Origin: an uncultured bacterium
GTDB lineage: Bacteria; Bdellovibrionota; JACOXK01; 2-02-FULL-40-11
Reading direction: 5' to 3'
DNA: 64,000 nt
Assembly: GCA_964371555.1 (NCBI GenBank)
Contig: CAYJMQ010000004.1
Location: 1,380 to 65,379, forward strand
Positions within the stretch are counted from its first letter, which is position 1. Each line of letters begins with the position of its first letter. Below the pieces are notes generated by a model. The model was not told where the DNA came from. It saw only the letters and a list, made by a program, of their open reading frames with translations, and ran no database searches. Position numbers and translations under genes: made by a program. Below, one piece after another: positions 18,351 through 57,051 of the stretch.

Positions 18351-20696
18351 TTACGGCTGTTTCAAATATCCCCTCATGACATGCGCGAGGAGACTCGCGA
18401 CTTTAAGGCGGTCAGACCCGATTTTTGAAGATGAAAAGAGAAGATCGGCGCTGAATTCCGGGAGTTTTCCAAATGAGAGAGAATATTCAAAAACACGTCT
18501 GTAGATTACTTTTTTATCTATAAACGGCATCAAAAAATTATTGAGTAAAATAGATAAGAACTTTCCAATGGCGCCAAAGACCGGAATTTTTCCTGCGGCG
18601 CCCGGCTGACTGTTATATTCATCAACTAATTTTTCAATGATCGGTTCAAAGTGTCTATACATCAATCGGATCTCACTTTTGTTTAGAGTTCCATCCTGAT
18701 CATTGTCAAAACGCAGAAAAAGATGTTCGATCGTTCGCACAATCATAAAGATTGCTGACAGCTCTTTCACAGAAATAATTTGAGGGTGATTCCTTCCAAT
18801 AAGCTGAACGATCGTTTCAATGTATTGAATGATGTCCTTTTCTGACATCACCTTCATGGCCACTGGAAAATACCACCGAAGCGTTGGAACCTTTTTAAGC
18901 GATTCCACAAGATTTTCTCTGAGCAAGCCGATCTCTTTTGAGTTTGGGAACTGATGGTGGAAGGGGATGACCTCATGATCCCAATAAAACCAGGTTACAG
19001 CCCGATTGTTTTCAAGAATAAAGCTCGTCGCTTCGATAATTTCATAACGATCGAGAGTGTTGTCGCCATTGCTGTTATAGAGCATCTGATCTGAAAGGAG
19101 CATAAGAATTTTTCCAAGTGTCTTGGTGTCCAAATCAAGCGGATTGGTCCAAATTCTTCGATGGGGGGTCAGATTCTCTTTTTTATCCCCTTCGGTGAGC
19201 ATGTCGAGTCCTTTCACAAGCCTCTGGAGGGTCGCCAGAAATGATGTGAGCTCTATATCTCCAATTTCAGCAGGGGAGCCGGGATCAAGCGGAACCATGG
19301 AGAGCTTTCCATCGCGGTTTTTATCATAGGCTGAAATGATGCGATCGATCGGCACAAACGCTGTCTGCGTGAGTGTAAAGGAATGCTTTCGAATGACCTC
19401 GGTTTTCTGAAAGGGGGTTGTCCAAAGATAGAGCGTCTTTGTGAAATCAGAAATCATCAGCTTAAATTTTTTCCTGATCTCCGGGGAGAGATTTCCGTCA
19501 TGAGCCTTAATCCATGCCGCTATTTCTTCTTTTTTGATTTCATAAATTTCCCCTGAAAAAGAAAAAAGGGAAGAGGCCTTTCCATAAATATCGATACTTT
19601 CATCAAAAATTTTAAGAAGCTCTTTAATTTCATCGCGACCCAAAACTTGAGGATTTCCCCCAAATAATTGCATTTTAAACTCAAAGACCGCGGTCACAAA
19701 TTCGCGAGCCTTTCCACCGATATGCGCGTGAAGAAGCTCAAGGAGTGTAATTAACTCCTCACGTTTTATTTCTGAAAGATTTTTATCAAAAAATGCCTTT
19801 AGCAATACCTGCAAAAGATATTGATAGGCATGAAGGAAACTAAGAGAGTCTTTGGATGTCCAGATCTCTTTCTCCAGATGCTGGTTGATTTGAGTGACCA
19901 GATGGTAGACCGATTCCAGATATGTTAAGAATTCTGGCATCTCACGGGCGACAACATTCTCTTCGCTCTCTCCAAAAAGCATACGATTGGCGAGATAGCC
20001 AGCCCGAATGTAGTGCGATCCGATCTCGTCTTCGAGCCCTTCCCAAAGCTGATATTGTCTGAGAAGGAGCTCTTTTGGAGTATCATGATCGATCAGACCG
20101 TGATTATTTTCAAACATCGCGCGGATCAGATCGATGTAACCGCTAAAGAGTCTTTTCCTCAGTTCCCAGTAGAGATCTTCTTTTTTATGGGTCTCTCTGT
20201 ATGAAAAAGAGAGCTTCGAAAGCCGGCTGATTTTTTGAGAGCCCCTCCTGACCCTTTTTATAACCTCTTCAATTTCAGAAAAACGGATTGAGTCCCCTCG
20301 TTCACCCAAAAGAAGATTACGCGCCGAAAAGAGGCGGTCGACCCAGATCTGAAGTTCCTCAGGATCACCGAGAATTTTTGAGTTGAGTAGTGTTTCTATT
20401 TCCCTTCTCGTGAGCTCCCCTTTTTTGCGTGGTTCAATTTGTTCATCGGCCTCATGGAGTATGGAGAGCAGACATTCTGTCGTTTGGCTAATTTCATTTT
20501 CACCCAGGGTTCCCATTTCAAAATGATTTTTAATTTTATCAAGATCGATTTGGCAGGAACCGTCGCTGAGGGCCGGATCATTTGTGAGGTCGAGCCGCTC
20601 TTTATTTGATCTGGGCGAAGGGGCTTTTTCTCCAACCCAGCCGCAGCCAGTTATCCACACAAACACAAGACTTAAAAGAAGATATTTAAAAAACAT
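18351..20696 (-). CDS. Large lipoprotein with EF-hand calcium-binding loops
   Basis: A 781-aa ORF. The lipobox is LVFVWITGC. There is a canonical EF-hand loop DNDQDGTLNKSE plus the further DxNxDG-like loops DKNRDGKLS and NGDNTLDRYE. It is mostly helical. It overlaps the upstream OMP gene by 11 nt. Confidence 0.5.
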   Translation of the reverse strand: MFFKYLLLSLVFVWITGCGWVGEKAPSPRSNKERLDLTNDPALSDGSCQIDLDKIKNHFEMGTLGENEISQTTECLLSILHEADEQIEPRKKGELTRREIETLLNSKILGDPEELQIWVDRLFSARNLLLGERGDSIRFSEIEEVIKRVRRGSQKISRLSKLSFSYRETHKKEDLYWELRKRLFSGYIDLIRAMFENNHGLIDHDTPKELLLRQYQLWEGLEDEIGSHYIRAGYLANRMLFGESEENVVAREMPEFLTYLESVYHLVTQINQHLEKEIWTSKDSLSFLHAYQYLLQVLLKAFFDKNLSEIKREELITLLELLHAHIGGKAREFVTAVFEFKMQLFGGNPQVLGRDEIKELLKIFDESIDIYGKASSLFSFSGEIYEIKKEEIAAWIKAHDGNLSPEIRKKFKLMISDFTKTLYLWTTPFQKTEVIRKHSFTLTQTAFVPIDRIISAYDKNRDGKLSMVPLDPGSPAEIGDIELTSFLATLQRLVKGLDMLTEGDKKENLTPHRRIWTNPLDLDTKTLGKILMLLSDQMLYNSNGDNTLDRYEIIEATSFILENNRAVTWFYWDHEVIPFHHQFPNSKEIGLLRENLVESLKKVPTLRWYFPVAMKVMSEKDIIQYIETIVQLIGRNHPQIISVKELSAIFMIVRTIEHLFLRFDNDQDGTLNKSEIRLMYRHFEPIIEKLVDEYNSQPGAAGKIPVFGAIGKFLSILLNNFLMPFIDKKVIYRRVFEYSLSFGKLPEFSADLLFSSSKIGSDRLKVASLLAHVMRGYLKQP

Positions 20697-22062
20697 AACT
20701 CCCCTTCATCCAGATCCGATCATTGGCGCGAAACATCCCCCAATAGGTCTGCTCTTCGCCGGAGATGACATCAAAACCGATACCAAATTTCATCTGTGTA
20801 AAAGGTCCCAGAGCGACTTCCCCCCGCAGCTGCCTCTGTCTCATAGAAAGATCTGTTTCACAAGAAAGGGAAAATTGAGAAGCAGCCGATGGCCGTAGAG
20901 CTATTTTTGAAAACAACGTTTGTTCGGGGTGGCTGGGGAGAGGGGAGGGGGGGATCGCGGCATCCCTCAAATTTTTCGTAAATAGGGCGGCCACAGTCCA
21001 CTCAGGGAGCCAGCGACGGTTTGTTTTCATCTGAACCCCTGTCATATTTTTTAATGCCGATTCGCGATCGACATAAACCCCATCGTAAAAAAAATCGATA
21101 TCCCAAAAGATTTTGCTCTGGATGATGTTCACCCCAGACTGGAAACCGATCATCTGCTCCCGAATAAATTCGGGATAAAGATGAACCATCGCCTCTAATA
21201 ATGACTCATCTTTAATATGAAGTTTAGCGTTATGACGAAGAGTCGGCTCAGGATTGAGATAAGCGGCCCCCAGAGCGGCAAAACGGATCCGTTCTGTCTG
21301 TAAAGAAATCCGCAGCCATCCCCCTTGATTCAATACGACATTTTTGGCTGATGGGAGATGAAGCGAATAATCGATAGGAATCACCGCATCCCCCACTTTT
21401 ATTTCTTCAAAAAGAGGGGGGAGCCAGCGGGAAACAGAACTGAGATGCTCATCTGAAGTTTTTTCAAACCGAATCCCCCCCCTGTTTGGAATAAACAGCG
21501 GTGAAAAGAAAAGTTCAATTTGGAAGATGGGGCGCTGATAGGAACCAAGAATTCCAACGATTCCATCGGTGATGTTCGTTAATGGATCAATCACAAATTT
21601 TGGAAACATTTTTTGAAGCGGCCCCCCGCACATTGTATCGATATCCCGCTTTGCCCAGTCTGGAAGGATTCTTCCAATTCGCAGGTTTAAATTTTTTGAA
21701 TTTAAGCCTGCAAATATTTCTCGAACATCAAACCAGTCTGATGTCTGCTGCGGAATGACCCCCCAGAGATCTACGGAGAGTCCATACTGAAACCATGCCG
21801 GTCTTTTCTTCGATTTGTGCGATAAATTCAGATGATACCTCGACTCCAGTTGATTATTGAGGTGTATGGATGAATAGGCAAGCGCCATCGCCTCCGCCTC
21901 GAGAGTCTGTGAATAAATCGTACCCCCGATACCAATGACACCCAAGATATAAAGAAGAAGAGAAAGAAAGAATACCGTTCGAGACAACACCCTTATCACG
22001 AACGGAGTTGTAGCACAGTCCTTTGCCCTATCCAATAAAAAGTAATTTAATTCCCCGTCCAC
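20686..22062 (-). CDS. Putative outer-membrane beta-barrel protein
   Basis: A 458-aa ORF. It has an internal signal-like segment VFFLSLLLYILGVIGIGGTIYSQTLEAEA, so the true start is probably downstream of the ORF-track M. Amphipathic beta patterning runs throughout. The C-terminus ...WMKGSYVF ends in Phe. It abuts the upstream gene. Confidence 0.45.
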   Translation of the reverse strand: MDGELNYFLLDRAKDCATTPFVIRVLSRTVFFLSLLLYILGVIGIGGTIYSQTLEAEAMALAYSSIHLNNQLESRYHLNLSHKSKKRPAWFQYGLSVDLWGVIPQQTSDWFDVREIFAGLNSKNLNLRIGRILPDWAKRDIDTMCGGPLQKMFPKFVIDPLTNITDGIVGILGSYQRPIFQIELFFSPLFIPNRGGIRFEKTSDEHLSSVSRWLPPLFEEIKVGDAVIPIDYSLHLPSAKNVVLNQGGWLRISLQTERIRFAALGAAYLNPEPTLRHNAKLHIKDESLLEAMVHLYPEFIREQMIGFQSGVNIIQSKIFWDIDFFYDGVYVDRESALKNMTGVQMKTNRRWLPEWTVAALFTKNLRDAAIPPSPLPSHPEQTLFSKIALRPSAASQFSLSCETDLSMRQRQLRGEVALGPFTQMKFGIGFDVISGEEQTYWGMFRANDRIWMKGSYVF

Positions 22063-31369: not shown

Positions 31370-32680
31370 TTAGAAATTGTATTGCGCGCGAAGGAGGACG
31401 AGAGACTCGTAGTCTTCTGATTCACTCCCCACGGGAACCTGTTCATCCAGATCTGTAAACTCATAATTGAGCATCAATCGGGTATGTTTGTTTGGCCACC
31501 AATTGAGCGCTGCGGTGGCAGCCTTGGCGCTGTTTGAACCTGTGAGGAAACCCGCCTGAAATGGAGCTTCATTGACTAAAAACTGTTCAACACGAACCAC
31601 AATTTCCCATGCCCCACTCCCCTCCTCTTTCCAGGAAAACTTCTTATTGGGCACGATCCAGCGATCCTTCGGTTTTCTCTCCCCGGTCAAAAGATAGCTG
31701 ATTGAGAGATACCAAGCATCTGTCTTGACATCTTCTTTCCGTCCAGACCGATCAACGTTATCAAATCTTGCGCTCACATATTCCGACTTAATATCCCCCG
31801 GCCCAAAAATCCATTGCAGCTCAGCCCCATATCTTCGTCTCTGATCTGCATGACGTGTTGCAGCGCCGTAAGTTGCAAAACGATTCCCACCGACGGTTGA
31901 GAAACCGGTGGCGGCAAGATCTTCTCTCGATCGACCGATTGTAAAAGAGCCCCCAATATAAAACTCTTTCCACGTTTCATTTCCAGATCTCTTAAAAGGG
32001 GCAAAAATCAAACGGGTTGCTCCATCAAAGGCGTCGTTATTGTCCTCAAGGGTTCTGGAACGTCCGTTAAATGCCCCGACAGCATATTCCAATAGCCCCT
32101 GGAATGGATTTCCAAAGATCATAAAGCCGATATCTTCCGCAGCTTCAATATTTTGAACGCCGATACTCTTTTCAATAAGATCGGTCCAGAGAGAAGAATA
32201 TTGACTTTCAAGACTAAAGGGGACTTTAAACTGACCAAGCCTCATTCTGAAATCAGAGAAATATTTGTATTGCAGCCACGCCTCCTGAAGGTTTGCCGAT
32301 GCCCCCGCAAACTGAGGGAAGAGACGATATTCAAAGTGATCTTCAAGAATACCCCGGATATCGAGCCTGGCACGACGGTTTCGAAACCGCGTATTCCCTT
32401 CATTCCCATGATTAAAGACATTGAGATCCCCCTGATACCACCCCCCGATTTTCAATGTGTCGTCTTTCCCCTTGAGATAGAATCCGTCGTCATAGATCGT
32501 TCGAAGCGATTCTTCGGTGTCCCCATTTGCTCTTTCATAAAGCCGGAATTCTTCAATCGTCTCCCAGATAATCTTTTTCAAAGACTCCTGATCGTCTGGC
32601 ATTTTTGATTCCTCGGAATAACTGGCAGACAAAGAAATAAAAAAAAAGAGGCCTGTGATAACCTGAAATAGTTTTTTCAT
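31370..32680 (-). CDS. Outer-membrane beta-barrel porin-like protein (possibly phosphate-selective porin O/P family)
   Basis: It has a signal peptide. It is 436 aa. The C-terminus ...LLRAQYNF ends in Phe. The size and strand pattern resemble OprO/P. The family call is tentative. Confidence 0.4.
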   Translation of the reverse strand: MKKLFQVITGLFFFISLSASYSEESKMPDDQESLKKIIWETIEEFRLYERANGDTEESLRTIYDDGFYLKGKDDTLKIGGWYQGDLNVFNHGNEGNTRFRNRRARLDIRGILEDHFEYRLFPQFAGASANLQEAWLQYKYFSDFRMRLGQFKVPFSLESQYSSLWTDLIEKSIGVQNIEAAEDIGFMIFGNPFQGLLEYAVGAFNGRSRTLEDNNDAFDGATRLIFAPFKRSGNETWKEFYIGGSFTIGRSREDLAATGFSTVGGNRFATYGAATRHADQRRRYGAELQWIFGPGDIKSEYVSARFDNVDRSGRKEDVKTDAWYLSISYLLTGERKPKDRWIVPNKKFSWKEEGSGAWEIVVRVEQFLVNEAPFQAGFLTGSNSAKAATAALNWWPNKHTRLMLNYEFTDLDEQVPVGSESEDYESLVLLRAQYNF

Positions 32681-34014
32681 AAAGCAACCAATTTTTCACC
32701 TTCACGCGCAGAGGGAATCAGAAAAATTTCCTCATTCAGGGATTTCCTTATGGAGGGTTTATCTGACAAAAGTTTGCCCGTGCCAATGACTATCGATACA
32801 TAATTTCGACTTAATGCCTTCACTTCTTTCTCTTCTATGCCATCCCCTGGGCCATCCCCTGGGTTTTTTTCTACAAGAGCAGACAGTTTTTTCCCAACTT
32901 GATTTTCCAAAAAGGCGATATGGCGCCGCTGACTCATCTCTCGAAGCCTCTCTGCCCGCCTTCCAATTTCTGATCTCTTCACCTGCTCAGGGAATCTTAC
33001 AGCCGAAGTCCCCTCTCGGCTGGAGTATGGAAACACGTGGAGCTTGCTCCAGGGGATAGACTCGAGGAAATGACAGCTGTTGTGAAATCTCTCTTCAGTT
33101 TCATACGGAAAACCGCAGATCAGATCGATACCAATAAAAACATCTTTAAAATCGTTCGAAATTTTTCTGATCAGCTTTTCATAATAAGAAACCGAATAAT
33201 TTCTTTTCATCTTCTCCAAAATGAAGTCATCACCCGACTGAAGCGGCAGATGAAAATGGGGACAAAAGATGACGGAATCTCTAAGAACAGATAGCAGTTC
33301 ATCACTCACATCTTCCGGCTCGAGCGAGCTGATCCGGAGTCGAAGAAGCTTTGTTTCATTTTCAATTCGTCGGACCAACGCCGCCAGAGTAACTTTGGGC
33401 GAAAGATCGGCTCCGTAAGAACCTAAAGAGACCCCCGTCAGAACCACCTCTTTGACATCGGCATCGATAAGCGTTCGAATCTGGTCGATAACTCGATCTG
33501 GCGCAAGACTCCTGCTCTTCCCCCTTGCATAAGGAATCACACAAAAGGTGCAGAAATCGTTGCAGCCATCCTGAATCTTTAGAAAAAAACGGGTGCGTTC
33601 AGCCGGTTTTTGAACGGGAGAATGCTGAAATTCGATATTTTTAAACGCATTTTGGACCCAAAGCTTTGGTTGAATCAAAAATCGATGTTCATTTAAAATT
33701 TCGGGGATCTTGTGTTTCAGGGTATTCCCAACGATAAAATCGATCCCTTCCATCTTTGCCCATTCCTGAAATCTCGTCTGGGCAGAACATCCGGTGATGA
33801 CAATGGCGGCATTCGGATTTTTCTTTTTAAAACGTCGAATCGCCTGTTTTGCTTCCTGATCCGCTTTTTCAGTCACCGTGCAGCTATTGACAATATAAAT
33901 ATCGGCAACGTCATCCGTAGAGACAGATTCAAATTCAGAGAGGCTCGATTTGAGCATTTCACTATCTGAATAATTCACCTTGCAGCCAAATGTCTCAACC
34001 GCAACCCGCTTCAA
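32677..34014 (-). CDS. Radical-SAM methylthiotransferase of the MiaB/RimO/MtaB family (MtaB-like)
   Basis: MKRVAVETFGCKVNYSDSE is the UPF0004 domain. The radical-SAM cluster is CNDFCTFCVIP. It is 445 aa with a short C-terminus. It overlaps the mnmA stop by 4 nt. Confidence 0.7.
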   Translation of the reverse strand: MKRVAVETFGCKVNYSDSEMLKSSLSEFESVSTDDVADIYIVNSCTVTEKADQEAKQAIRRFKKKNPNAAIVITGCSAQTRFQEWAKMEGIDFIVGNTLKHKIPEILNEHRFLIQPKLWVQNAFKNIEFQHSPVQKPAERTRFFLKIQDGCNDFCTFCVIPYARGKSRSLAPDRVIDQIRTLIDADVKEVVLTGVSLGSYGADLSPKVTLAALVRRIENETKLLRLRISSLEPEDVSDELLSVLRDSVIFCPHFHLPLQSGDDFILEKMKRNYSVSYYEKLIRKISNDFKDVFIGIDLICGFPYETEERFHNSCHFLESIPWSKLHVFPYSSREGTSAVRFPEQVKRSEIGRRAERLREMSQRRHIAFLENQVGKKLSALVEKNPGDGPGDGIEEKEVKALSRNYVSIVIGTGKLLSDKPSIRKSLNEEIFLIPSAREGEKLVAL

Positions 34015-36357: not shown

Positions 36358-37599
36358 TTAAAACGAATAACGAGCTTCCAAAATAGTGCTGTTTTTTCCA
36401 TCCAGATGTTCCGGATGTAGAAGTCCTTCCAAGGTGAAACGCATATTCGGACTCGGTTGGGCAACGAAACTAATGACATAACGACTAAAATCTTGAAAAT
36501 CGCTTTCATGGTAATTAAATTCTTCGTAACGAAAGACAGGAGTCAACCATGCCCAAAAAAACTGATTATAAAGAAGCTCGATGGCAAAACTGTTTGTATT
36601 GAGCTTTCTTCCAAGTGCGTCCATGTTGCCATCTCTGCCTGCCTGGAAAAGCCCGCTCAATTCAAACGAGTGGTATTCAACACCTATATCTCCCCCCACG
36701 CGAAAAAAACTGTTTCTAAAAGCGGCATTATCGGTCGTATAGTTCGACCTCCCAAAATAACCGAAGCCCCCCGCACGTAACCCCTCGCTCATATCCCCTT
36801 CCCCATTAAAATGCATGCCGACCGGCTTCCAAAGAAGCCTCGCATAGTAATCTTTTTGTGATCCGATGTCATTCAAATTGCCACTGCCATTGACCACCGC
36901 GGCCGAATAAGAAAGCCGATCCGCTACAATACCGTTGAGCTCTGCGCCAAGCTGGCTATTTCTCATTCTGAATGCTGAGGGAGAAAGATTGGGACCAGCC
37001 GTTACAACGCGTGTGTCGCTATAAAGATAGTTTCTCAGCATTAATCTTCTGTGAGCAGAAAAGGCATTGGTGGCTGGTTCAAAATAACCGAGCTGAAGAT
37101 TGAATGCGTTTTTGGGCAAGCGCGCGCCGAAAAGATCATAAATCCCCAAAAACATTCGCGAAAAAGGGGTGCCGGGAAAGGTACCTTCATCAATGGCTGT
37201 AAAATCTGCCCAAAATGAAAAGGTTTCTCCCAGACTATCACCATAAAAAAATTCGAGTTCATGAAGCTCAAACGTAAAACGACTGTCCTCCACTCTTTGT
37301 GCCCTCAGATGTCCCACTCCGCCCGCGGGGAAAATAGCAGCGACCTTAGACGGCCACTCCCCCCCCAAAGGAATCTGCTTGATCTTTGCCATCTCCTCAT
37401 CCCCTTTTGGAAATCGATAGCCATGAAGACGAAATGACTCGCCATAAGCATTAAGTTTGGGATAAGCGGTGTGACAAAGATTACAGCTTGTTCCATATTT
37501 TCGCGCAAAATAAGGCATTCCAAATGATAAGGACGGCAACAATATGAGACCGACAACAAAGATTGTGGTACGCATTTTTCTCCCCCTTTTGTAGTTCAT
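36358..37599 (-). CDS. Outer-membrane beta-barrel protein with an N-terminal CxxCH haem-binding motif
   Basis: It has a signal peptide. The mature N-terminus carries SCNLCHTAYPKLN (C-x-x-C-H). The rest has amphipathic beta-strand patterning. The C-terminus ...ILEARYSF ends in Phe. Confidence 0.45.
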   Translation of the reverse strand: MNYKRGRKMRTTIFVVGLILLPSLSFGMPYFARKYGTSCNLCHTAYPKLNAYGESFRLHGYRFPKGDEEMAKIKQIPLGGEWPSKVAAIFPAGGVGHLRAQRVEDSRFTFELHELEFFYGDSLGETFSFWADFTAIDEGTFPGTPFSRMFLGIYDLFGARLPKNAFNLQLGYFEPATNAFSAHRRLMLRNYLYSDTRVVTAGPNLSPSAFRMRNSQLGAELNGIVADRLSYSAAVVNGSGNLNDIGSQKDYYARLLWKPVGMHFNGEGDMSEGLRAGGFGYFGRSNYTTDNAAFRNSFFRVGGDIGVEYHSFELSGLFQAGRDGNMDALGRKLNTNSFAIELLYNQFFWAWLTPVFRYEEFNYHESDFQDFSRYVISFVAQPSPNMRFTLEGLLHPEHLDGKNSTILEARYSF

Positions 37600-37627
37600 T
37601 TTAAAATAGTTTTTTGTCTAAGAATTC

Positions 37628-38902
37628 TCATCGTCCGACCATTGCCAGAATATCTGCTCGAGCAAGATGATAATTCTTTCGTAGTTCCGAATATCTTTTC
37701 TTATATTCGATATATTTTTGCGTTGCGCTAAGAACATCTGGAGAGTTTTTAACACCTCTCTTATATTCGCCCAGTGTTCGATCGAAATAAAGTTTCCCTA
37801 ACTTCAAGTTTTTCTCCCCAATATGAACAAGCTCGTGAATGACTTTTAATTCTGATTTCATTGCCTCAAAACGAGCTTCTAATTCTTTTTGACGTTGAAG
37901 AGAAAGACTCTCAAATGCCATGGCTTGAAGACCTGCGGCAGCGCCTTCTGCTTTAGATTGAAAACCATCAAAAATATCAAGAGTTACTTTAATCCCGCCA
38001 ACAGTTTCATATCGAGCATTCCGTGTGGCTGCTTCTCGTTCTCTCTGCGTATACAAAAAATACCCCGCATAACCATCAATACTGGGAGTCCACCAACGAT
38101 AAAATTGTTTTTTTTGAAATTCAAAAGCTTCTTGATTTGCTTTTAATTGTAAAATTTCTCGATGAGAATTAATTAAATCCGCCTTTAAAGCCAAAAGGCC
38201 CTCATCGTGCTGATGTGGAGCGGCATCAATAGTTTCAAGATTTGTCTCTGGAGACAATCCCAATACAGCGTTTAACTCACGTTGAAAATTAGAAGACATC
38301 AATTCAGCCTGTCTCAAGTCTTGTTCAAGTTGAATTTTATTGATTTCAAACTCAATTCTGTCTGTAAGGGTTGCTAAGCCTGCTTGAATACGTTTTTCAG
38401 AAGCTCCTTTATTTTTTTCATTAAGATCTAGCGCTTCTTTAAAAATGTTTTGTGTCTCTTTTTGGAAAACTAAATTCCAATAAATTCCTCTTGCCTTCGT
38501 TAATTCCTCAAAATATATTTTTTGCTGTTCCTGCTGAGAAGCATTCAACTGTTTTTCTCGGACAGATCCTTCTAATGAATCCCGCCCCCCTTTAAAAAGA
38601 TTTATTTTTGTCTCAATTCCTCCAAAGGGTTGTTGCCTGGTGTCGCCAAATTCCCCGGATTTGAATGATTCCCCTCCAACTGAAACACCTAACGTAGGAA
38701 GATAAGACCGCAAAAGATACCCTGTGCGAGCTTCTCCCGATTGAACTGAAAAAGTGGCTCCCTGAACACTTTTATTTTTTTCTTTTACAAGGCTTGGTAA
38801 ATCTTCAAAGTTAATTTTAAGAGCGGTGGTTCCCGTTCCTCTTGAAGGAACCACCGCAATTGTTAAAATAATAATTTTAATAAATGATTTTTTATTCAAC
38901 AT
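37628..38902 (-). CDS. Outer-membrane efflux factor (TolC/CzcC family)
   Basis: It has a signal peptide. It is 424 aa with a duplicated helical/beta architecture. It is the last gene of the RND operon. Confidence 0.65.
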   Translation of the reverse strand: MLNKKSFIKIIILTIAVVPSRGTGTTALKINFEDLPSLVKEKNKSVQGATFSVQSGEARTGYLLRSYLPTLGVSVGGESFKSGEFGDTRQQPFGGIETKINLFKGGRDSLEGSVREKQLNASQQEQQKIYFEELTKARGIYWNLVFQKETQNIFKEALDLNEKNKGASEKRIQAGLATLTDRIEFEINKIQLEQDLRQAELMSSNFQRELNAVLGLSPETNLETIDAAPHQHDEGLLALKADLINSHREILQLKANQEAFEFQKKQFYRWWTPSIDGYAGYFLYTQREREAATRNARYETVGGIKVTLDIFDGFQSKAEGAAAGLQAMAFESLSLQRQKELEARFEAMKSELKVIHELVHIGEKNLKLGKLYFDRTLGEYKRGVKNSPDVLSATQKYIEYKKRYSELRKNYHLARADILAMVGR

Positions 38903-38906
38903 ATTT

Positions 38907-39323
38907 TTAATTTTGAGGAGGCTCTACCTGAAAAGTAACTGTCTCCTTTTTGCCTTTATAATCTACGATAAGTTCTAAGAGATATCTATGGGTACCTTTG
39001 ATTTGAGGTTTTGCTTCAAAGTGATCGTTGACAATATCTAATTTAATCGTTTGTTTTTTCTTTTTTGGTATCTGCACGGCTGCCACAATAGAAATATCTT
39101 TAAGAGATATAGGAGAGAGTTTATGGGTTAAAGGGTAGAGCTTTATCCCGGATGAATCATTCACAAGCTCGATATAAAGCAGGGTTACCCCTTTCACTGT
39201 TCCTCCATGAGGAGCTTGAATGGCGCCAGGGAGAACATCGTGTCCTTCATGTGCTTGAACAAAATCCCAGGACGTTATTAATCCCAGGATGAAAAAAGTT
39301 AAAATAAGATATCGATATTTCAT
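38907..39323 (-). CDS. Small periplasmic His-containing protein (candidate metal-binding accessory protein)
   Basis: A 138-aa ORF with a signal peptide. The mature protein begins HEGHDVLPGAIQAPHGG. It is wedged between the RND pump and the OMF. It overlaps the pump stop by 4 nt. It resembles neither an MFP nor CusF by eye. Confidence 0.4.
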   Translation of the reverse strand: MKYRYLILTFFILGLITSWDFVQAHEGHDVLPGAIQAPHGGTVKGVTLLYIELVNDSSGIKLYPLTHKLSPISLKDISIVAAVQIPKKKKQTIKLDIVNDHFEAKPQIKGTHRYLLELIVDYKGKKETVTFQVEPPQN

Positions 39324-42300
39324 GTGTCATGACCTCCTTCGATAACAGGTTTTTGATAAGTTGCAGCTCTTTCAGCCGATTTTCTTCCAAAATGGAAGAA
39401 GACTGTTGGGGTTACAATCATATCCAAAAGAGTGGAGCTAAAAAGTCCCCCCACAATAACAACAGCAACCGGGTGCAAAATTTCTTTACCAGCTTGTCCT
39501 TTAGCCAGAACAAAAGGAATAAGCGCTAACATGGCTGTCAATGCTGTCATTAAGACAGGGACAAGTCGTTCAAGAGAACCTCGAATGACCATCTGTCTAG
39601 AAAAATTTTCACCTTCATGTTTCATGAGATGAAGATAATGAGAAATCATCATAATGCCATTTCGGCTGGCAATGCCGCAAAGCGTAATAAAGGCTACCAA
39701 TGTTGCTACGGACAAAATGCGAGAAGAAAGAAAAATAGCAATAAGGCTCCCAATTAAAGCCATGGGAATATTAAGCATAATTTGGATGGCAATAAAGCTG
39801 GATTTGAAATGTCCATACAAAACCAGAAATATACCTAAGAGAGAAAGGATGCCCAAAAAAGTAATGAGTTTTGAAGCTTTTTGCTGACTTTCAAATTGAC
39901 CTCCAAAATTAATAAAATAACCATCAGGTAATTTTATATTTTTGCTGATTTTAGATTTTATATCTTGAATTAAACTATCTAAGTCTCGACCGGATGCGTT
40001 GGCTTGAACCACGATTCTTCTTTGAACGTTTTCTCGATTGATAATATTTGGGCCTGTCGATTCATATACATCAGCTACCTCTTCCAAAGTTACCCGTGTA
40101 CCATCGGGCATAATTTTTATAAGTGTTTTTTTCATAAGTTCAATGTTAGAACGGGAACTGTCATCAAATCTCATAAATACATTAAAAAATCTTTGGTTCT
40201 CCAAAGTATAGGCTACAATTTCACCATGTAATGCCATCTCAAGCATCGATGCAAGACTACCCAGAACAATGCCATATTTGGCTGCTTCTTCTCTTAATAA
40301 CTGAATTTTTACTTGAGGGATGAGCACCTGTTGCTCTATTTGCAGGTCAACCAATCCCCGGGTACCTTCAATGGCCTTGTGAATTTCAGCTGCCTTGTTT
40401 CTTAATGTCGTTAGATCTGTTCCGAAAATCTTAATCGCAATTTGAGCACGAACCCCTGACAGCAAATGATCTAATCTGTGGGATATTGGCTGGCCAATAT
40501 TTACATAAATGCCAGAAATGGTGGTTAATTTTTCTCGAATGTCATTTAAAACAGCTTCTCGAGATCGATGAGATTTGGCCTTAAAATCGACATCGATTTC
40601 AGAATAATGGACACCTTCAGCATGTTCATCCATTTCTGCGCGTCCTGTTCTCCTGGCAACTGATTTCACCTCAGAAACACTTAAAATAAGTTGTTCAGCC
40701 TGGGTACCAATTTTATTACTTTCTTCAAGAGAAATACCCGGATTTGCTAAGACAGTAATGGTAGCTGTGCCTTCGTTGAATTTAGGCAAAAATTCTTTTC
40801 CCATAAATAAAATTAATGTCAATGAGGCAAGAAAGAGTATGCCTAACCCACCCATCACAATTTTGGGATGGTCTAGCCCCCAATTGAGAAATTTTTCATC
40901 CCAATATTTTAAAAAGCGCACAAACCATCCTTCATCTCGCTCCATGAGTTTGCCTTTGGTTAAAAGATAGGAACAAAGAGCAGGGGTTAGGGTTAAAGAT
41001 ACGATGAGAGAAGCTACTAAAGAAACACTATAAGCAATTCCTAATGGAATAAAAAGCCTTCCTTCTATTCCACTTAAATAAAAGAGAGGAAGAAAAACAA
41101 GAACAACAATAATGGTCGCAAAAACAATAGAGTTTCTTACTTCGGAAGAAGCATTATAAATAACTTCTAAAACGGGCAAAGGTTTTCCCAGTTTTTTATT
41201 TTCTCTAAGCCTGCGAAAAATATTTTCTACATCCACAATAGCATCATCTACCAATTCACCGATCGCAACAGCTAATCCGCCTAATGTCATCGTGTTTACC
41301 GTAATGCCAAAAAGTTTCATCACAATGGCAGTTATGACAAAAGAGAGAGGAATGGCTGTGAGGGTAATCATTGTTGTCCGAAAATTAAGTAAGAAAATAA
41401 AAAGTACGATGATGACAAGAATAGCGCCATCCCGCAGTGCTTCTTCGACATTATGAATGGCAGCTTCAATAAAGTGGGATTGCTTAAATAAGTCCTTTTC
41501 TAATTTAACATCGCTTGAAAATCCTTTTGCAATTTCATCGAGCGCTTTATCAATACGCTTTGTGAGCTCTACCGTATTTGCTCCAGGTTGTTTTTGAATA
41601 CTCAATATAACAGCCGGTTTGGCATTGACACTTCCATCTCCTCTTTTAATTTGAGCGCCAATTTTAACTTGAGCGACATCTTGAACAAGTTTTGGAACAC
41701 CAAAATGCAGCCCCACCACTGAATTAAGAATATCTTCTTCTGAACGAACCATTCCAATATTTCTTATTAGAAATTCTTTCTTCTCCTGATCAATAAATCC
41801 ACCGGTTGTATTTTGACTTAAATGGGTCAGCGAGTGTTCAATGTCTTCCAGGGTTAATTGAAAATTTTGAATTTTTTCCGCAGAAAGTAAAATTTGATAT
41901 TGCCGCACACCTCCTCCGATAGCAATCACTTGTGCAACACCGGGAATACTTAGAAGCCTTGGACGAATCACCCAATCTGCCAATGTTCTAAGTTCGAGAG
42001 GAGAAATTTCTCCTTTTTCAGAAATTAAACCAAGAAGCTGTATTTCCCCCATAATGGAAGCAATGGGCCCCATTACCGGGATTGCATTCTTTGGTAATTT
42101 TTCTTTTGCAAGTTGAAGTTTTTCAGATACAAGTTGTCTATTTCTATAAATATCCGTTCCCCAGTCAAACTCGACATAAACAACAGAAAGACCAATCCCG
42201 GAAGAAGAACGCACACGTTGAACACCTGGCAATCCATTTAAAACCGTTTCAAGTTGAAGAGTAACCAAAGTCTCTACTTCTTCAGGAGCCATCCCTGGCG

Positions 42301-42457
42301 CTTCAGTTAAAATAGTTACTGTGGGGCGATTTAAATCAGGGAATACATCTACAGGCAGATGCATCAGTACATAGGTGCCGTAAACCAGCAAAAAAGCTGC
42401 GCTAGAGACAACAAAAAGTCGATTGGTCAAAGAAAAACGAATAATTTTATTAAGCAT
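39320..42457 (-). CDS. Heavy-metal efflux RND transporter (CusA/CzcA family)
   Basis: A 1045-aa ORF with 12 TM helices and two large periplasmic loops. The N-terminus MLNKIIRFSLTNRLFVVSSAAFLLVYGTYVLMHLPVDVFPDLNRPTV aligns with CusA/CzcA. Confidence 0.8.
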   Translation of the reverse strand: MLNKIIRFSLTNRLFVVSSAAFLLVYGTYVLMHLPVDVFPDLNRPTVTILTEAPGMAPEEVETLVTLQLETVLNGLPGVQRVRSSSGIGLSVVYVEFDWGTDIYRNRQLVSEKLQLAKEKLPKNAIPVMGPIASIMGEIQLLGLISEKGEISPLELRTLADWVIRPRLLSIPGVAQVIAIGGGVRQYQILLSAEKIQNFQLTLEDIEHSLTHLSQNTTGGFIDQEKKEFLIRNIGMVRSEEDILNSVVGLHFGVPKLVQDVAQVKIGAQIKRGDGSVNAKPAVILSIQKQPGANTVELTKRIDKALDEIAKGFSSDVKLEKDLFKQSHFIEAAIHNVEEALRDGAILVIIVLFIFLLNFRTTMITLTAIPLSFVITAIVMKLFGITVNTMTLGGLAVAIGELVDDAIVDVENIFRRLRENKKLGKPLPVLEVIYNASSEVRNSIVFATIIVVLVFLPLFYLSGIEGRLFIPLGIAYSVSLVASLIVSLTLTPALCSYLLTKGKLMERDEGWFVRFLKYWDEKFLNWGLDHPKIVMGGLGILFLASLTLILFMGKEFLPKFNEGTATITVLANPGISLEESNKIGTQAEQLILSVSEVKSVARRTGRAEMDEHAEGVHYSEIDVDFKAKSHRSREAVLNDIREKLTTISGIYVNIGQPISHRLDHLLSGVRAQIAIKIFGTDLTTLRNKAAEIHKAIEGTRGLVDLQIEQQVLIPQVKIQLLREEAAKYGIVLGSLASMLEMALHGEIVAYTLENQRFFNVFMRFDDSSRSNIELMKKTLIKIMPDGTRVTLEEVADVYESTGPNIINRENVQRRIVVQANASGRDLDSLIQDIKSKISKNIKLPDGYFINFGGQFESQQKASKLITFLGILSLLGIFLVLYGHFKSSFIAIQIMLNIPMALIGSLIAIFLSSRILSVATLVAFITLCGIASRNGIMMISHYLHLMKHEGENFSRQMVIRGSLERLVPVLMTALTAMLALIPFVLAKGQAGKEILHPVAVVIVGGLFSSTLLDMIVTPTVFFHFGRKSAERAATYQKPVIEGGHDT

Positions 42458-42477
42458 TTTCTTGTATTTTAAATCTC

Positions 42478-42870
42478 TTATTCGAGACGGCTCGAAACCA
42501 ACCGTATAAGCTCGTCAATTTTTTCTTCGATTTTAACCTTATTATTTTCTTTCATGGTCATTCGTACACAACTTCGAATATGTTGTTTTAAAATGGCCAT
42601 TTCAATAAACTTAAGTCCCGCTGCGACGGCTTTAAATTGAATTAGGATATCGACACAATATCTCCGTTCTAAAATCATGTTTTCGATACCGCTCATCTGC
42701 CCTTTGACTTTGCTCAAGCGTGAAAGAAGTGATGTGTAATCAGGATGGTTTTTAGATGGGTCAGTGGGCACAGTTGCATCCTGGCAATGTTTACACTTTT
42801 TATGCGAATCACCTCCTAAAATTACATTTTCCATATATAGAATTCTCCTTTCTCTCTTTCTTATTGACAT
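42478..42870 (-). CDS. CsoR/RcnR/FrmR-family metal-sensing transcriptional repressor with an N-terminal Cys/His-rich extension
   Basis: The core is KVKGQMSGIENMILERRYCVDILIQFKAVAAGLKFIEMAILKQHIRSCV, which is the DUF156 signature with the conserved Cys and His ligands. The extension is HKKCKHCQD. The likely start is MENV at 42834. Confidence 0.75.
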   Translation of the reverse strand: MSIRKRERRILYMENVILGGDSHKKCKHCQDATVPTDPSKNHPDYTSLLSRLSKVKGQMSGIENMILERRYCVDILIQFKAVAAGLKFIEMAILKQHIRSCVRMTMKENNKVKIEEKIDELIRLVSSRLE

Positions 42871-42896
42871 ATACCCTATGGGGGGTATATGTCAAT
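42865..42896. promoter_or_regulatory. Palindromic operator embedded in divergent sigma70-like promoters
   Basis: TTGACATATACCC-TATGGG-GGGTATATGTCAA. The 13-bp arms are perfect. The ATACCC...GGGGTAT core resembles the B. subtilis CsoR operator. TTGACA -35 boxes lie on both strands, each about 16-17 nt from a TATATG -10-like hexamer. Confidence 0.55.
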
Positions 42897-43055
42897 AAAA
42901 CAATAAGAAATGAAGAGAGAGATCATGAAAAAATCAAAGGGGATTATATTTTACGTATTTGCCACACTCCCTCAGAGTTTTATGCTATGGAAACAGGTCA
43001 GGTGTTATGTTATGGCCCTGACGGTGGAATTTGACTTTTTGGAAGGGGGATATTT

Positions 43056-43733
43056 ATGATACGACATATTTTTTTAGGAACCTGGATCATAGGTTCATTG
43101 CTTATACTAGGGTGCCAAGATGAAGATCAATCGTTTAAAGAGTTACAAAAAAAGACTGGAAAATTTGGTATGGAAGGCGAGTTTGAAGCAGAAAATGAAA
43201 GGGCCATTAAAATGGAAGAGGATCTTTCCAGAAGACATCATTTTTATCAGTCCTTAAAAGGAACGTATGAAGGAACTCTTCAAGAAGAAGGCGGAAGTTT
43301 TAATTTAAGAATTACTTTTGCTCCTAGTCTTCCACCATATCCGAAAGATCCTAGTCGCATTAGAACTATTGAGGAAATAACATCAGATCTTACAAATTTG
43401 TATTTTAATGTACAAGTCATTCAATGGAGTCCTCAAAATCCTCTAACTTCTGTAGGATGTCGGGTAGAAGGGGTCAGACCAGATATGATTACAGGAGAAG
43501 TTTTTATCTCTTCAGAAATTTGTCCCAATTTTTATGCTCTTCTTTTATCTGATGCCACCTCTCAAGATAGCATAGGAACATTAAACAATAATCAAGAGAA
43601 AGAACTTGCAACAAGCCTTGCTCAAGCCATTATTGAAGGTCAACTCACAACGGTTTCTCAAATTCAAGGTCAAGTACGTCCTACGACAAATGCTGCTATT
43701 TATGAGTTTATCGCAAAAAGGGTTGAGATGTGA
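43056..43733 (+). CDS. Hypothetical lipoprotein
   Basis: The lipobox is LLILGCQ. It is 225 aa. It is the first gene of the divergent operon. I recognise no family. Confidence 0.45.
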   Translation: MIRHIFLGTWIIGSLLILGCQDEDQSFKELQKKTGKFGMEGEFEAENERAIKMEEDLSRRHHFYQSLKGTYEGTLQEEGGSFNLRITFAPSLPPYPKDPSRIRTIEEITSDLTNLYFNVQVIQWSPQNPLTSVGCRVEGVRPDMITGEVFISSEICPNFYALLLSDATSQDSIGTLNNNQEKELATSLAQAIIEGQLTTVSQIQGQVRPTTNAAIYEFIAKRVEM

Positions 43734-45004
43734 AGAATATCCTTAATGCTTTTTTTATTTTCTTCTTTTCTTTATTTTCTTTGGAATCTTTGGCTTCATC
43801 TGACTCTTTAACTATCTCTCTTGAAGAGATTACTCAAAAAATAAGTACAGAAAATTATCTGGTTTTAGAAAATGCCCAGCGTGTTTATCAGGCAAAAGAA
43901 GCCATCGAAGTTTCGAGAGGAAATCTTCTTCCTCATCTTAACTTTTGGAAAGTAGCTGCAATCACTTTTGAACCGATGGCAGCTATTGGCATGGTTGAAG
44001 ATATAGCTCCCTTTTTGGTACCTGCAAATTGGTTTAGAGTTAAAGAACAAGAGATACTTTATTTGGCTACTCAAGAATCTTATCGAGCTCTCTGGGCCAA
44101 TGAATTGATGACTGGTCGAAATCTCTATTTTAAAATTTTGTTTGATGAAATTCTTTTGGAAAAAATTCAGGAAAATAAAAATCTAATTAATCAAATTTTG
44201 AATATTTCAAAAATGCGAGAGAAATTAGGCGGACAAAGGCAAACTATTTCTCAAGATATTGAGGTAAGAGTTTTAGCCCTCCAGGAAGATATTCGATCTT
44301 TAGAAGTTTTAATCAATGAGGAACTTAATTCTCTTTCTTATTTGATGGGACATGCAAGTGAGGTGGAAATTAAACCACAACCCATTGATCTTCCCGAATT
44401 TGAAAATTTTGAACCGTTGAATTACACAGATTTTGAATTTAGAGTGCTAGATACAGCTCCTGAATTGAGACAGATGGAATATTTAGTGAAGGTAGCTGAC
44501 TTGGTTAAAAAAGAAGAAGAGTTTTCATTTTTAGGGGGATCGAATTTAAGTCGAGGCGTTGCAGGAGGAGTTTTTGATGGACTTCCAATGGGTGTAGGAG
44601 GGCTTGGATTTGGGCTTGCCCCTGCAATTCGTGTGGCTAAGGCGCAAAAAGAAATTTTAAAAATTCAAAAAAGAGGAATCGAAGAGGTTCTTAAAAGGCA
44701 ACTTAAAAATTTAGTCAATAATTATAATTTAGACTTAGAAAATCATGTGAATTTAAAAAGACGCTCAGAGCTTACAAAAAATATTTTAGACAACCTCTTT
44801 AGAAGATTAACCTTGGGAGAAGAAATAGAAGTTTTAGATCTTGTGGAAGCTTCAAGAAATTATATTCAAGCATCCAGTTCCTTTTTTGCCATCAATTATC
44901 GTTTTTTAGCCAATGAAGATAAGCTTTCACGTCTTATTTTTCATGGAGACTATGATAAAAAGCCAGCCGGTTTAGAAGAAGTAGAAAAGAGAAGCAAAGA
45001 ATAA
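43730..45004 (+). CDS. Outer-membrane efflux protein-like (TolC-family) protein
   Basis: It has a signal peptide. It is 424 aa. The N-terminal LTISLEEITQKISTENYLVLENAQRV is the OMF helix signature, and the repeat halves are duplicated. It overlaps the upstream stop by 4 nt. Confidence 0.5.
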   Translation: MKNILNAFFIFFFSLFSLESLASSDSLTISLEEITQKISTENYLVLENAQRVYQAKEAIEVSRGNLLPHLNFWKVAAITFEPMAAIGMVEDIAPFLVPANWFRVKEQEILYLATQESYRALWANELMTGRNLYFKILFDEILLEKIQENKNLINQILNISKMREKLGGQRQTISQDIEVRVLALQEDIRSLEVLINEELNSLSYLMGHASEVEIKPQPIDLPEFENFEPLNYTDFEFRVLDTAPELRQMEYLVKVADLVKKEEEFSFLGGSNLSRGVAGGVFDGLPMGVGGLGFGLAPAIRVAKAQKEILKIQKRGIEEVLKRQLKNLVNNYNLDLENHVNLKRRSELTKNILDNLFRRLTLGEEIEVLDLVEASRNYIQASSSFFAINYRFLANEDKLSRLIFHGDYDKKPAGLEEVEKRSKE

Positions 45005-45472
45005 ATGAAAAAAATTTTAAAACTCAGTTTTTTATTTTTAATTTTTACAGGATGTAACGAAGAGGAGGAAATTCAAAAATGGATTGATAAGGTAGATAAT
45101 CTCCGATCAAAAGTAGAACAAGAATTACCTATTACTCCCTATCAAGATTCTCAACATCAGGCTTTTAAAGAATACTTTTCCGAACTTAATCAAATGATAT
45201 TAAAATTAGGGGATGATGAAGAACTCATAAAGCCATTTAATGGGGTTGTTTCAAAAAGTGATTTGGTCGTTTTATGTCCGAAAATCTTTTTGTCTAAAGA
45301 AAATTGGATGCTTCTCATGGGAAGATGTCAAAAAAATCGTTTCTTTTTATGTGCTGAAGAAGTTCGTTCTTATCCTACCATCGTCTCTCGGCTCAGAGAA
45401 CACTTAGGTACGGAACAACAAAAAAGATTTGACGAAGTATCAGCATGTCGGGAAATATCAGAAGTTCAATAG
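45005..45472 (+). CDS. Hypothetical lipoprotein
   Basis: The lipobox is LIFTGCN. It is 155 aa. It starts 1 nt after the upstream stop. Confidence 0.45.
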   Translation: MKKILKLSFLFLIFTGCNEEEEIQKWIDKVDNLRSKVEQELPITPYQDSQHQAFKEYFSELNQMILKLGDDEELIKPFNGVVSKSDLVVLCPKIFLSKENWMLLMGRCQKNRFFLCAEEVRSYPTIVSRLREHLGTEQQKRFDEVSACREISEVQ

Positions 45473-45494
45473 ATGTGAAATATCACATGTTACA

Positions 45495-45857
45495 TTACAT
45501 TTTAATAGTGGCTCCTTTTACACCTTCCAACGTAGAAGCCTCTACCTCGATTGATCCACCAAATGTCCAACGTTTAAAAAGTATACACCATCGCCCTTGA
45601 AAATCAGTCAGTGTTGTATAATAAGATTCATCATGTTTTACAGTTACCAATAGCGGCTTTTTACCTTCCGGATGAGTAGCTGTTCCACAAGCTTCTAGAG
45701 CACCATTCCCCCTAATGTTCGTGAGAGAGGTTATTTTTAAATCTATCTCTTTTGCAAAAGCCCCTTTTATATTTATAAGGCCTAAAACAATTGCAACACA
45801 AAATCCAATATTTATTACCATTTTCTTCATTTTCATCCTCCATTGGGTAATATGCAA
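45495..45857 (-). CDS. Hypothetical small secreted protein
   Basis: It has a signal peptide (MKKMVINIGFCVAIVLGLINIKGAFA). It is about 110 aa mature and has 2 Cys. I recognise no family. Confidence 0.4.
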   Translation of the reverse strand: MHITQWRMKMKKMVINIGFCVAIVLGLINIKGAFAKEIDLKITSLTNIRGNGALEACGTATHPEGKKPLLVTVKHDESYYTTLTDFQGRWCILFKRWTFGGSIEVEASTLEGVKGATIKM

Positions 45858-45978
45858 AATTTCCGCGATTAAGTCCAGTCAACTTCCATGTAGTTTTTTG
45901 CGATGAGTGATTTTTAAATGACACAACTCCTATTTTTTGCTTGTCATGAGAACAGCGCTTTTCTATACTCCGCTTGAG

Positions 45979-56063: not shown

Positions 56064-56415
56064 GCCCCATTTAAAAAAAAAAATTCGTTGGGTGATCTTC
56101 GGTTTTGTCATTTTTACCCTTTTTTTCACGGCCTTTGGAGATCGCGGGCTTCTTAAAATTTTTCGCCTCAAAAAAGAGTTCAAGAGACTCGAAGCTTCTC
56201 TCAAAAATCTTGAGAACCAAAATACCGATATCTCTAAAAACATTGAAAAAATGAAAAAAGAGAGGGCATTTCAGGAGAGATCGGCTCGTGAAACCCTTGG
56301 ACTGGTGCAGGATGATGACATTGTTTATGAGTTTCAGGATGAGTTGAGGGCTAAAACTTCAGCTCAAAAGAGCGATGCCGCGGTAAATGAAATAGCCGCT
56401 GAGAATAAAAAATAA
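56050..56415 (+). CDS. Septum formation initiator (FtsB/DivIC-like) coiled-coil membrane protein
   Basis: It has one TM helix followed by the leucine-zipper-like coiled coil LKKEFKRLEASLKNLENQNTDISKNIEKMKK. Confidence 0.5.
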   Translation: MPQIEPHLKKKIRWVIFGFVIFTLFFTAFGDRGLLKIFRLKKEFKRLEASLKNLENQNTDISKNIEKMKKERAFQERSARETLGLVQDDDIVYEFQDELRAKTSAQKSDAAVNEIAAENKK

Positions 56416-57051
56416 AACCGCCGTCCCCTTCTCAATGACAATGAGCCATCTCCCAGATTTTGGAAAGACTGCAAGGAGTCCGGTAAAAATCCCAAGTCCG
56501 ACAAATAAAAGCCCCATCCCCAGCGCAAAACAAAACATCATGAGCGCCCCGTAAACAAGACTCTGACGTGTCGCGATAAAGGTTAAAATCGCCCCCAGAA
56601 GCGGGACAGTGCAAGGGGCCACAATAAAACCCGAGGTAATCCCCATTACAAACGCGTCTCCCCTCCCCCCCCCAAGGTTGGAAAGGGCTTTGGGGACCGG
56701 TATGCGAATCCATTCCATCTGTATCAGACCGAAGAAAAACAAGATTCCGCCGACCGTAAAAAAAACAGACGGGGTCATCGTAATCTTTCCAAAAACCTTT
56801 CCGGTAAGAGCGGCAAAAACCCCAAGCGCCGTGTATGTCATCGCCATTCCGATCACATAAATCAGCGACAGCCAGACTGCGTGCAGATGAGATTTCGCCC
56901 TGCTGCTGATAAACGTTACCGTAATCGGTATGACAGGATAAACACAGGGGGTTAGACTCGCCAAAATTCCTGAAACGAAGGCCAAAACAAACGCCCCAAA
57001 AAACCCAAGAGACGATCCTTCAGACAATGCCTGAGAAAATAAATCGGTCAT
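56359..57051 (-). CDS. ccdA: Cytochrome c-type biogenesis / thiol:disulfide electron-transfer membrane protein CcdA (DsbD transmembrane domain)
   Basis: A 230-aa ORF with 6 TM helices and the conserved Cys in LTPCVYPVIP. Confidence 0.7.
   Translation of the reverse strand: MTDLFSQALSEGSSLGFFGAFVLAFVSGILASLTPCVYPVIPITVTFISSRAKSHLHAVWLSLIYVIGMAMTYTALGVFAALTGKVFGKITMTPSVFFTVGGILFFFGLIQMEWIRIPVPKALSNLGGGRGDAFVMGITSGFIVAPCTVPLLGAILTFIATRQSLVYGALMMFCFALGMGLLFVGLGIFTGLLAVFPKSGRWLIVIEKGTAVLFFILSGYFIYRGIALLS

Follow-up and report, generated by a model that had tools for sequence, protein, structure and literature searches.

The gene at positions 36358-37599 (minus strand) of a 64-kb stretch of DNA from an uncultured delta-/Bdellovibrionota-like bacterium (contig CAYJMQ010000004.1; the whole stretch is called the window below) encodes, according to our analysis, a Cyc2-type electron-transfer porin that is unrelated to the metal-efflux system lying beside it. 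We put the probability of this whole statement at roughly 0.8; the membership of the protein in the Cyc2 family, taken separately, is very likely. The family assignment is carried by a characteristic motif around a single c-type haem attachment site, by the conservation of this site among distant homologues, by a predicted 16-strand barrel, and by the position of the protein among the known Cyc2 clusters. The separation from the efflux system is carried by the composition of the efflux genes and by the gene neighbourhoods of related copies.

Identification of the protein as a member of the Cyc2 family

Cyc2 is a fused cytochrome-porin that combines an outer-membrane pore with a single-haem cytochrome and acts as an oxidase of dissolved iron in iron-oxidizing bacteria (Keffer et al. 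2021, PMC8406198). The same authors recognize the family by a signal peptide, one CXXCH motif, and an upstream AxPxFAR[Q/K][T/Y] motif that is 'unique to Cyc2', together with a PxL motif 4 residues downstream, a minimum length of 365 amino acids (aa), and a 16-strand barrel modelled on OprO/OprP (PMC8406198). The following features of the window gene correspond to this description.

36358-37599, minus strand: cyc2-like gene, an ATG-started open reading frame (ORF) of 413 aa in the ORF list
37580-37587, minus strand: Shine-Dalgarno-like AGGGGGAG, 4-5 nt 5' of the ATG of Met9, aligned with the AGGAGG-N5-ATG of the homologue on contig L121
37519-37599, minus strand: signal peptide, residues 1-27 of the listed ORF, judged by inspection
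37495-37515, minus strand: PYFARKY, the Cyc2-defining PxFAR[Q/K][T/Y], residues 29-35
37471-37485, minus strand: CNLCH, the sole predicted c-type haem attachment site, residues 39-43
37453-37461, minus strand: PKL, the PxL motif, residues 47-49, beginning 4 residues past CXXCH
36364-37326, minus strand: 16-strand porin barrel, residues ~92-412, from the AlphaFold2 secondary structure and Foldseek

All of the published sequence features are present in the window protein (PYFARKY, CNLCH, PKL, 405-413 aa). The optional first alanine of the AxPxFAR motif is replaced by glycine, and the form used for screening, PxFAR[Q/K][T/Y], is intact. The length is 413 aa as listed and 405 aa when counted from Met9, and the barrel has 16 strands over residues 92-412 and is OprO/OprP-like. 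The protein reads MNYKRGRKMRTTIFVVGLILLPSLSFG in its leader and then MPYFARKYGTSCNLCHTAYPKLN, and its C-terminus is ...ILEARYSF. The register around the haem site is GMPYFARKY, GTS, and then the first cysteine, with H43-TAY-P47-K-L49 downstream; the segment SCNLCHTAYPKLN covers residues 38-50 of the listed protein. The leader opens with a basic n-region, continues with a hydrophobic core of 12 residues (TTIFVVGLILLP), and has SFG ahead of the mature N-terminus MPYFARKY. It is modelled as a helix (residues 2-19) by AlphaFold2, and the leaders of all homologues in a 50-sequence alignment stop just ahead of the PxFARKY block. The signal peptide, the single N-terminal c-type haem signature, and the terminal ...RYSF that the original prediction had described were all recovered.

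The true start of the gene is probably Met9 (ATG at 37575-37573), which would give a 405-aa precursor, since the Shine-Dalgarno-like element precedes this codon and the region aligns with the AGGAGG-N5-ATG start of the nearest, 84%-identical homologue, on contig L121. The 413-aa database protein, with 37573-37599 as the extra part, probably begins 8 codons too early.

Our search for homologues covered 5.8 billion proteins and returned 103 of them. All were unnamed or 'hypothetical', and none had a Pfam domain if one unrelated precomputed match is disregarded. Among the 50 that were aligned, at a mean identity to the window protein of only about 30%, ten columns are invariant (F31, R33, K34, Y35, C39, C42, H43, L49, G53, and G171) and five more are conserved in at least 90% of sequences (P29, A32, P47, N50, and G60). 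Invariance at such low identity indicates that selection on the protein has been strongest at the haem site and in its flanks. C39 and C42 are its only cysteines, and among the 207 window ORFs that reach 60 aa, no other carries a CxxCH. As judged from the alignment, in which CxxCH is kept in 50 of 50 homologues, the motif is far beyond chance, and a fortuitous CxxCH was ruled out. The family is large, with 5,779 relatives at E<=1e-3 and 799 at E<=1e-30 when its profile was searched against 1.84 billion cluster representatives.

We also used a degenerate DNA pattern for PxFAR[QK][TY]x3CxxCH to search 185,579 species genomes. At least 120 genome loci carry this motif; among the loci listed, it lies near the N-terminus of the ORF in 118 of 120, and the complete ORFs are typically about 400-500 aa long and mostly end in an aromatic residue. 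The hosts among the listed loci include Mariprofundus and other Zetaproteobacteria, Acidithiobacillus, Sideroxydans, and Gallionellaceae, as well as Nitrospira, Acidobacteriota, Gemmatimonadota, Bacteroidota, and Myxococcota. The spacing of three residues between the FAR motif and the first cysteine is common to the ORFs of Acidithiobacillus, Zetaproteobacteria, Sideroxydans, and Gallionellaceae and to the window protein. After the Acidithiobacillus ORF comes a gene for a 213-aa dihaem Cyc1-like cytochrome, so that cyc2 and cyc1 stand in the same order as in the rus operon. Two further observations were made in the same scan. One metagenome-assembled genome (MAG) of Zetaproteobacteria has two tandem cyc2 copies with identical haem heads (L074, 13-57 and 3293-3337, plus strand). 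In one acidobacteriotal and one Pseudoduganella locus (L069 and L099), the motif lies 305-375 residues into a longer ORF, which could reflect an N-terminal fusion or just an artefact of calling the longest ORF.

The relation to the sequences from iron-oxidizing genera was then apparent at two levels. In BLAST comparisons, FARKY-type proteins aligned with the window protein from end to end, with E-values down to 5.6e-36, and the matches in a small BLASTP database to ORFs of Acidithiobacillus (6.8e-9), Mariprofundus (2.5e-14), and Zetaproteobacteria (1.5e-7) covered the haem head only, as is the case for the FARQT-type proteins of iron oxidizers. Profile-profile comparison with hhalign extended the similarity to nearly the whole protein, with a probability of 99.6% for the Acidithiobacillus-type group (E 1.2e-24, 366 columns) and 99.2% for the group of Zetaproteobacteria, Gallionellaceae, and Sideroxydans type (E 8.3e-20, 349 columns).

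Predicted structure of the barrel

The AlphaFold2 model, which was built on the homologue alignment, has a mean pLDDT of 83.5 and a pTM of 0.81. It shows short helices around the haem motif (residues 30-70) and, after residue 92, 16 long strands forming a beta-barrel, in agreement with the porin-like strands over about 370 residues that had been proposed earlier. A long loop of lower confidence connects strands 5 and 6 (residues 174-215) and holds H183, and the barrel ends in an aromatic residue (...RYSF). Foldseek searches against the PDB retrieved the 16-strand porins OmpU, PorB, Omp32, OprO (4RJW), and OprP (2O4V) with E-values of 1e-9 to 1e-11, and the top query-normalized TM-score, 0.56, was obtained for OprO 4RJW and OprP 2O4V. 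No related solved structure was found by sequence search of the PDB. The HMM search suggested with the original prediction was also run, but it named no family, as Pfam-A (2025 copy) and NCBIfam release 20 gave zero matches for the protein even at E<=10.

A haem site and a porin packed into one polypeptide, as the original prediction had put it, is what the published definition of Cyc2 describes. The fused architecture is not new, and its recognition in the window is a rediscovery of Cyc2.

Placement among the Cyc2 clusters

A neighbour-joining tree of 100 sequences, with three groups anchored by their taxa, reproduced the three published Cyc2 clusters. The FARKY group, in which the window protein is placed, also includes the second Mariprofundus paralogue and the Nitrospirota sequences. 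Surrogate HMMs agree with this position, as the protein scores 244 bits over its full length with the Cluster-3-type model, versus 49 bits with the Cluster-2-type and 26 bits with the Cluster-1-type model. By these comparisons the protein appears to be a Cluster-3-type ('FARKY', Cyt572-containing) Cyc2, where the label 'Cluster 3' follows from the presence in the group of the second zetaproteobacterial paralogue and of Nitrospirota.

Gene context of related copies

The remoter subclade members have, downstream of cyc2, a gene for a conserved secreted protein of about 200 aa with weak CarboxypepD_reg/fn3_3 similarity. The proteins from four unrelated contigs share 35-48% identity, and their genes lie directly or one gene 3' of cyc2.

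L123, 10534-11142: ~200-aa partner
L125, 9538-10167: ~200-aa partner
L126, 2757-3443: ~200-aa partner
L127, 2476-3072: ~200-aa partner

Rieske proteins, cytochrome b, multihaem and cbb3-type c cytochromes, COX2 or cupredoxin-like proteins, and sigma-54 two-component regulators are often encoded beside the subclade cyc2 genes as well. The neighbouring genes of the relatives support a respiratory electron-transfer role for this Cyc2 branch, and the ~200-aa secreted protein may serve Cluster-3-type Cyc2 as a periplasmic partner or electron acceptor.

A gene possibly related to haem attachment occurs in the window itself at the place where the original prediction had reported it.

56359-57051, minus strand: ccdA (DsbD_TM, Pfam PF02683, 3.3e-32), between M16 peptidase genes

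CcdA is a thiol-reductant transporter usable in cytochrome c maturation. Its gene is the sole maturation-related one in the window, in which our check for ccm/ccs genes found no CcsA/CcsB or Ccm genes.

Proposed mechanism and physiological role

We infer the following mode of action largely by analogy with characterized Cyc2 proteins. After Sec export and cleavage of the signal peptide, the mature N-terminus MPYFARKYGTSCNLCH... would receive one covalent haem c, and the remaining ~320 residues would fold as a 16-strand barrel in the outer membrane. The small haem domain would sit at the barrel's periplasmic mouth. The narrow pore would admit a one-electron donor in solution, most likely Fe2+, which would reduce the haem, and from there the electron would go to a soluble periplasmic carrier. 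Whether Fe(II) oxidation is the physiological role in this organism is in our opinion evenly balanced, because the function of Cluster 3 is rated the most uncertain and Cyc2 has also been proposed to act in Mn(II) oxidation.

Several points weigh against the proposal as a whole. Cluster 1 is the Cyc2 group with the best functional support, and the function of Cluster 3 was rated 'most uncertain' (Keffer et al., PMC8406198). The Cyc2 anchors in the comparisons above are MAG orthologues from iron-oxidizer genera, not the purified or characterized proteins, namely those of A. ferrooxidans ATCC 23270 and M. ferrooxydans PV-1 and the Leptospirillum Cyt572. The position of the haem domain at the periplasmic mouth is taken from the literature on characterized Cyc2. 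No conserved methionine or second histidine was found among the homologues as a distal haem ligand. Outside the haem head, the sole candidate for this function is H183 (74% conserved), located in the loop that connects strands 5 and 6. The window encodes no other cytochrome, oxidase, bc complex, or respiratory protein and no homologue of the ~200-aa partner. Finally, the host is not a recognized iron oxidizer; the best named matches to its Lon protein come from uncultured 'Deltaproteobacteria bacterium' MAGs (97%, partial, then 75%), and next comes 'Bdellovibrionota bacterium' with 58%.

According to the strongest alternative, the protein is a Cyc2 homologue with a role other than energy-yielding iron oxidation: it could oxidize another reductant in solution, such as Mn(II), render Fe2+ harmless at the cell surface, or take part in redox sensing or in general extracellular electron exchange. 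Besides the uncertain function of Cluster 3, this reading draws on the proposal of Cyc2 for Mn(II) lithotrophy in Ca. Manganitrophaceae, on the occurrence of Cyc2 homologues in many organisms that are not known as iron oxidizers, and on the solitary position of the window copy among housekeeping genes, which lacks the respiratory cluster of more distant members. However, the three Cyc2 proteins that were tested biochemically, one per cluster, all oxidize Fe(II) (Keffer et al. 2021, PMC8406198), and partners missing from the window say little, as only 64 kb of the genome is visible. We regard such a different role as a possibility to be kept in mind, though not the favoured one.

The efflux genes next to cyc2

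The second part of our statement, that the Cyc2-type porin is unrelated to the efflux system, concerns the region immediately upstream of the gene.

~37593-45931, both strands: putatively inserted low-GC block, 8.3 kb, delimited by the GC content per gene and by the two-block alignment to L121

A metal-efflux locus beside the gene had been noted originally, and it is indeed there. The minus strand of the block carries a TolC-like OEP gene, a 138-aa ORF, an RND pump of the CusA/CzcA family (814 bits versus a cutoff of 701), and a CsoR/RicR-like repressor, and on the divergent plus strand there are two ORFs (225 aa and 155 aa) and a weak OEP-like gene. Neither a gene for a periplasmic adaptor (MFP) nor an integrase is recognizable in the block. 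Four of its ORFs have no family match at E<=1 (138 aa, 38907-39323; 225 aa, 43056-43733; 155 aa, 45005-45472; 120 aa, 45495-45857).

The composition of the block differs from that of its surroundings, with 32-38% GC in the block genes versus 45.3% in the cyc2-like gene and 42-47% in both flanks. The 3.2-kb contig L121, which holds the nearest homologue, shares two aligned blocks with the window (about 81% nucleotide identity): L121 3-1495 corresponds to window 47379-45932 (C13 peptidase, apt), and L121 1629-3180 corresponds to window 37545-35961 (cyc2, nifS). The two aligned blocks are 133 bp apart in L121, where cyc2 adjoins apt, versus 8.4 kb in the window. Because homology to L121 breaks off at 45932 and restarts only at ~37592, we consider the segment between these points an insertion or at least an indel, and its foreign composition favours an insertion in the window. 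The block stands in place of an 81-bp AT-rich intergenic region 5' of cyc2. As read from this alignment, the 8.3-kb foreign block is inserted about 17 nt upstream of the predicted ribosome-binding site of cyc2, where the native promoter region would have lain. There is no obvious target-site duplication at the block junctions.

The 28-nt spacer between the stop codon of the OEP gene and cyc2 contains no terminator-like site, so that transcription of the efflux operon could plausibly run on into cyc2 in this genome; such read-through, if it occurs, is a derived state. A further step would be that cyc2, having lost its own promoter region, now serves as the last gene of a metal-derepressed operon, and that the haem-porin detoxifies a reduced metal (Fe2+ or Cu+) as an oxidase in the outer membrane and is not a lithotrophic iron oxidase. 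We consider this distinctly unlikely. If true, the metal-stress-induced haem-porin would connect efflux with redox chemistry by accident, though by now in a functional way.

It is very unlikely that the haem-porin is a working part of the adjoining CzcA-type efflux system and couples metal redox to export, as the original prediction had hinted. Such a coupling could appeal to the position of cyc2 on the same strand, 28 nt 3' of the OEP gene and with no terminator-like site between them, which makes co-transcription under the CsoR/RicR-like repressor plausible. Against the coupling, however, stand the foreign composition of the block and its absence from the relatives. The 84%-identical homologue adjoins apt across the 133-bp spacer with no efflux genes, the 58%-identical homologue adjoins HU and MerR genes that are 25 kb off in the window, and efflux genes are absent from all seven other homologue contexts that were examined. 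Membership of the protein itself in a CzcCBA/CusCBA system was rejected as well, given that it shows no OEP, HlyD, or ACR_tran match and that the association is missing in the nearest relative and in all other contexts examined. The adjacency of cyc2 and the efflux genes looks like an accidental, secondary event and not a conserved partnership.

Other outer-membrane porins as alternatives

Two alternatives to the Cyc2 assignment concern the barrel. An ordinary diffusion porin, such as an anion porin of the OprO/OprP type with a fortuitous CxxCH and no haem, would account for the resemblance of the barrel to general and phosphate porins, and a true Porin_O_P gene is present 4 kb away. Nevertheless, conservation in a family with more than 5,700 representatives peaks at CxxCH and its flanks, the only two cysteines of the protein lie there, no Pfam porin matches at E<=10, and hhalign against the Porin_O_P protein of the window gave a non-significant probability of 10.6%, though a few barrel motifs line up. 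We therefore give this explanation almost no weight. Membership in Porin_O_P (PF07396) was dismissed, as no family HMM matches and the likeness to OprO/OprP is structural only. A barrel subunit of an MtrAB/PioAB/PCC-type complex around a separate multihaem cytochrome would likewise be an outer-membrane barrel tied to metal redox chemistry, but it is hardly credible here, since the window protein has 16 strands, not ~26 as in MtrB/PioB/MtoB, carries its haem site in the same chain, and has in the window neither a multihaem cytochrome gene nor another CxxCH ORF beside it.

Other genes in the window

Apart from the genes discussed above, the window contains housekeeping genes. The Porin_O_P gene without a haem motif (PF07396, 1.1e-35) is located at 31370-32680 on the minus strand. 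Two paralogous genes encode MiaB/RimO-like radical-SAM methylthiotransferases, at 1038-2333 (plus strand) and 32677-34014 (minus strand); the second runs together with mnmA and nifS directly 3' of cyc2, and the cyc2-nifS adjacency is also found in L121. At 18351-22062 on the minus strand, a gene for a 781-aa protein, the sole family signal of which is one EF-hand-like calcium-binding loop, is followed by a 458-aa ORF with no family match.

Significance

Cyc2 is the most widely used genetic marker of microbial iron oxidation, and with the window copy the family gains a divergent member of Cluster-3 type, the host of which is an uncultured delta-/Bdellovibrionota-like bacterium. Despite more than 5,700 representatives at 50% identity, the Cyc2-like family is undetected by any Pfam-A or NCBIfam model, and for this reason such genes stay 'hypothetical' in thousands of genomes. 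Related copies are accompanied by the recurring gene for the ~200-aa partner and by clusters of Rieske and cytochrome b genes, and both may be of use in identifying the periplasmic electron acceptor of Cluster-3 Cyc2. The case also demonstrates that gene adjacency is misleading as a guide to function unless the relatives are checked. In our opinion, the main points of value are the absence of the family from Pfam and NCBIfam, the apparent insertion that displaced the promoter region, and the recurrent partner gene.

Comparison with known systems

OprO and OprP (4RJW, 2O4V), two porins selective for phosphate, are the best query-normalized matches of the barrel (TM 0.56), but they differ from the window protein in having no haem domain and no detectable sequence-family relation to it. 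The Cyc2 proteins of Mariprofundus ferrooxydans PV-1 and Gallionellaceae (Cluster 1) share its domain plan and are related to it at the profile level (99.2%, 349 columns), whereas the 26 bits on the Cluster-1-type HMM come from the haem head alone. Similarly, Cyc2 of the Acidithiobacillus type is a fused monohaem cytochrome-porin with profile homology over the full length (99.6%, 366 columns). It has FARQT where the window protein has FARKY, and the pairwise likeness is confined to the haem head (E 6.8e-9, 58 aa). Furthermore, the window gene has no adjoining cyc1, cox, or rus operon.

The closest correspondence is with Cluster 3 Cyc2, the cluster of Leptospirillum Cyt572 and the second paralogue of Zetaproteobacteria, with which the window protein shares the combination of a signal peptide, PxFARKY, CxxCH, PxL, and a 16-strand barrel in about 400-430 aa. 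In contrast to the neighbouring Cluster 3 branches, the window gene is solitary and has neither the partner gene nor respiratory genes beside it. Together with its two nearest relatives (84% and 58% identity) the window protein forms a branch of its own, which is distinguished from other Cluster 3 proteins by a shorter segment past the haem head and by glycine instead of alanine at the first motif position.

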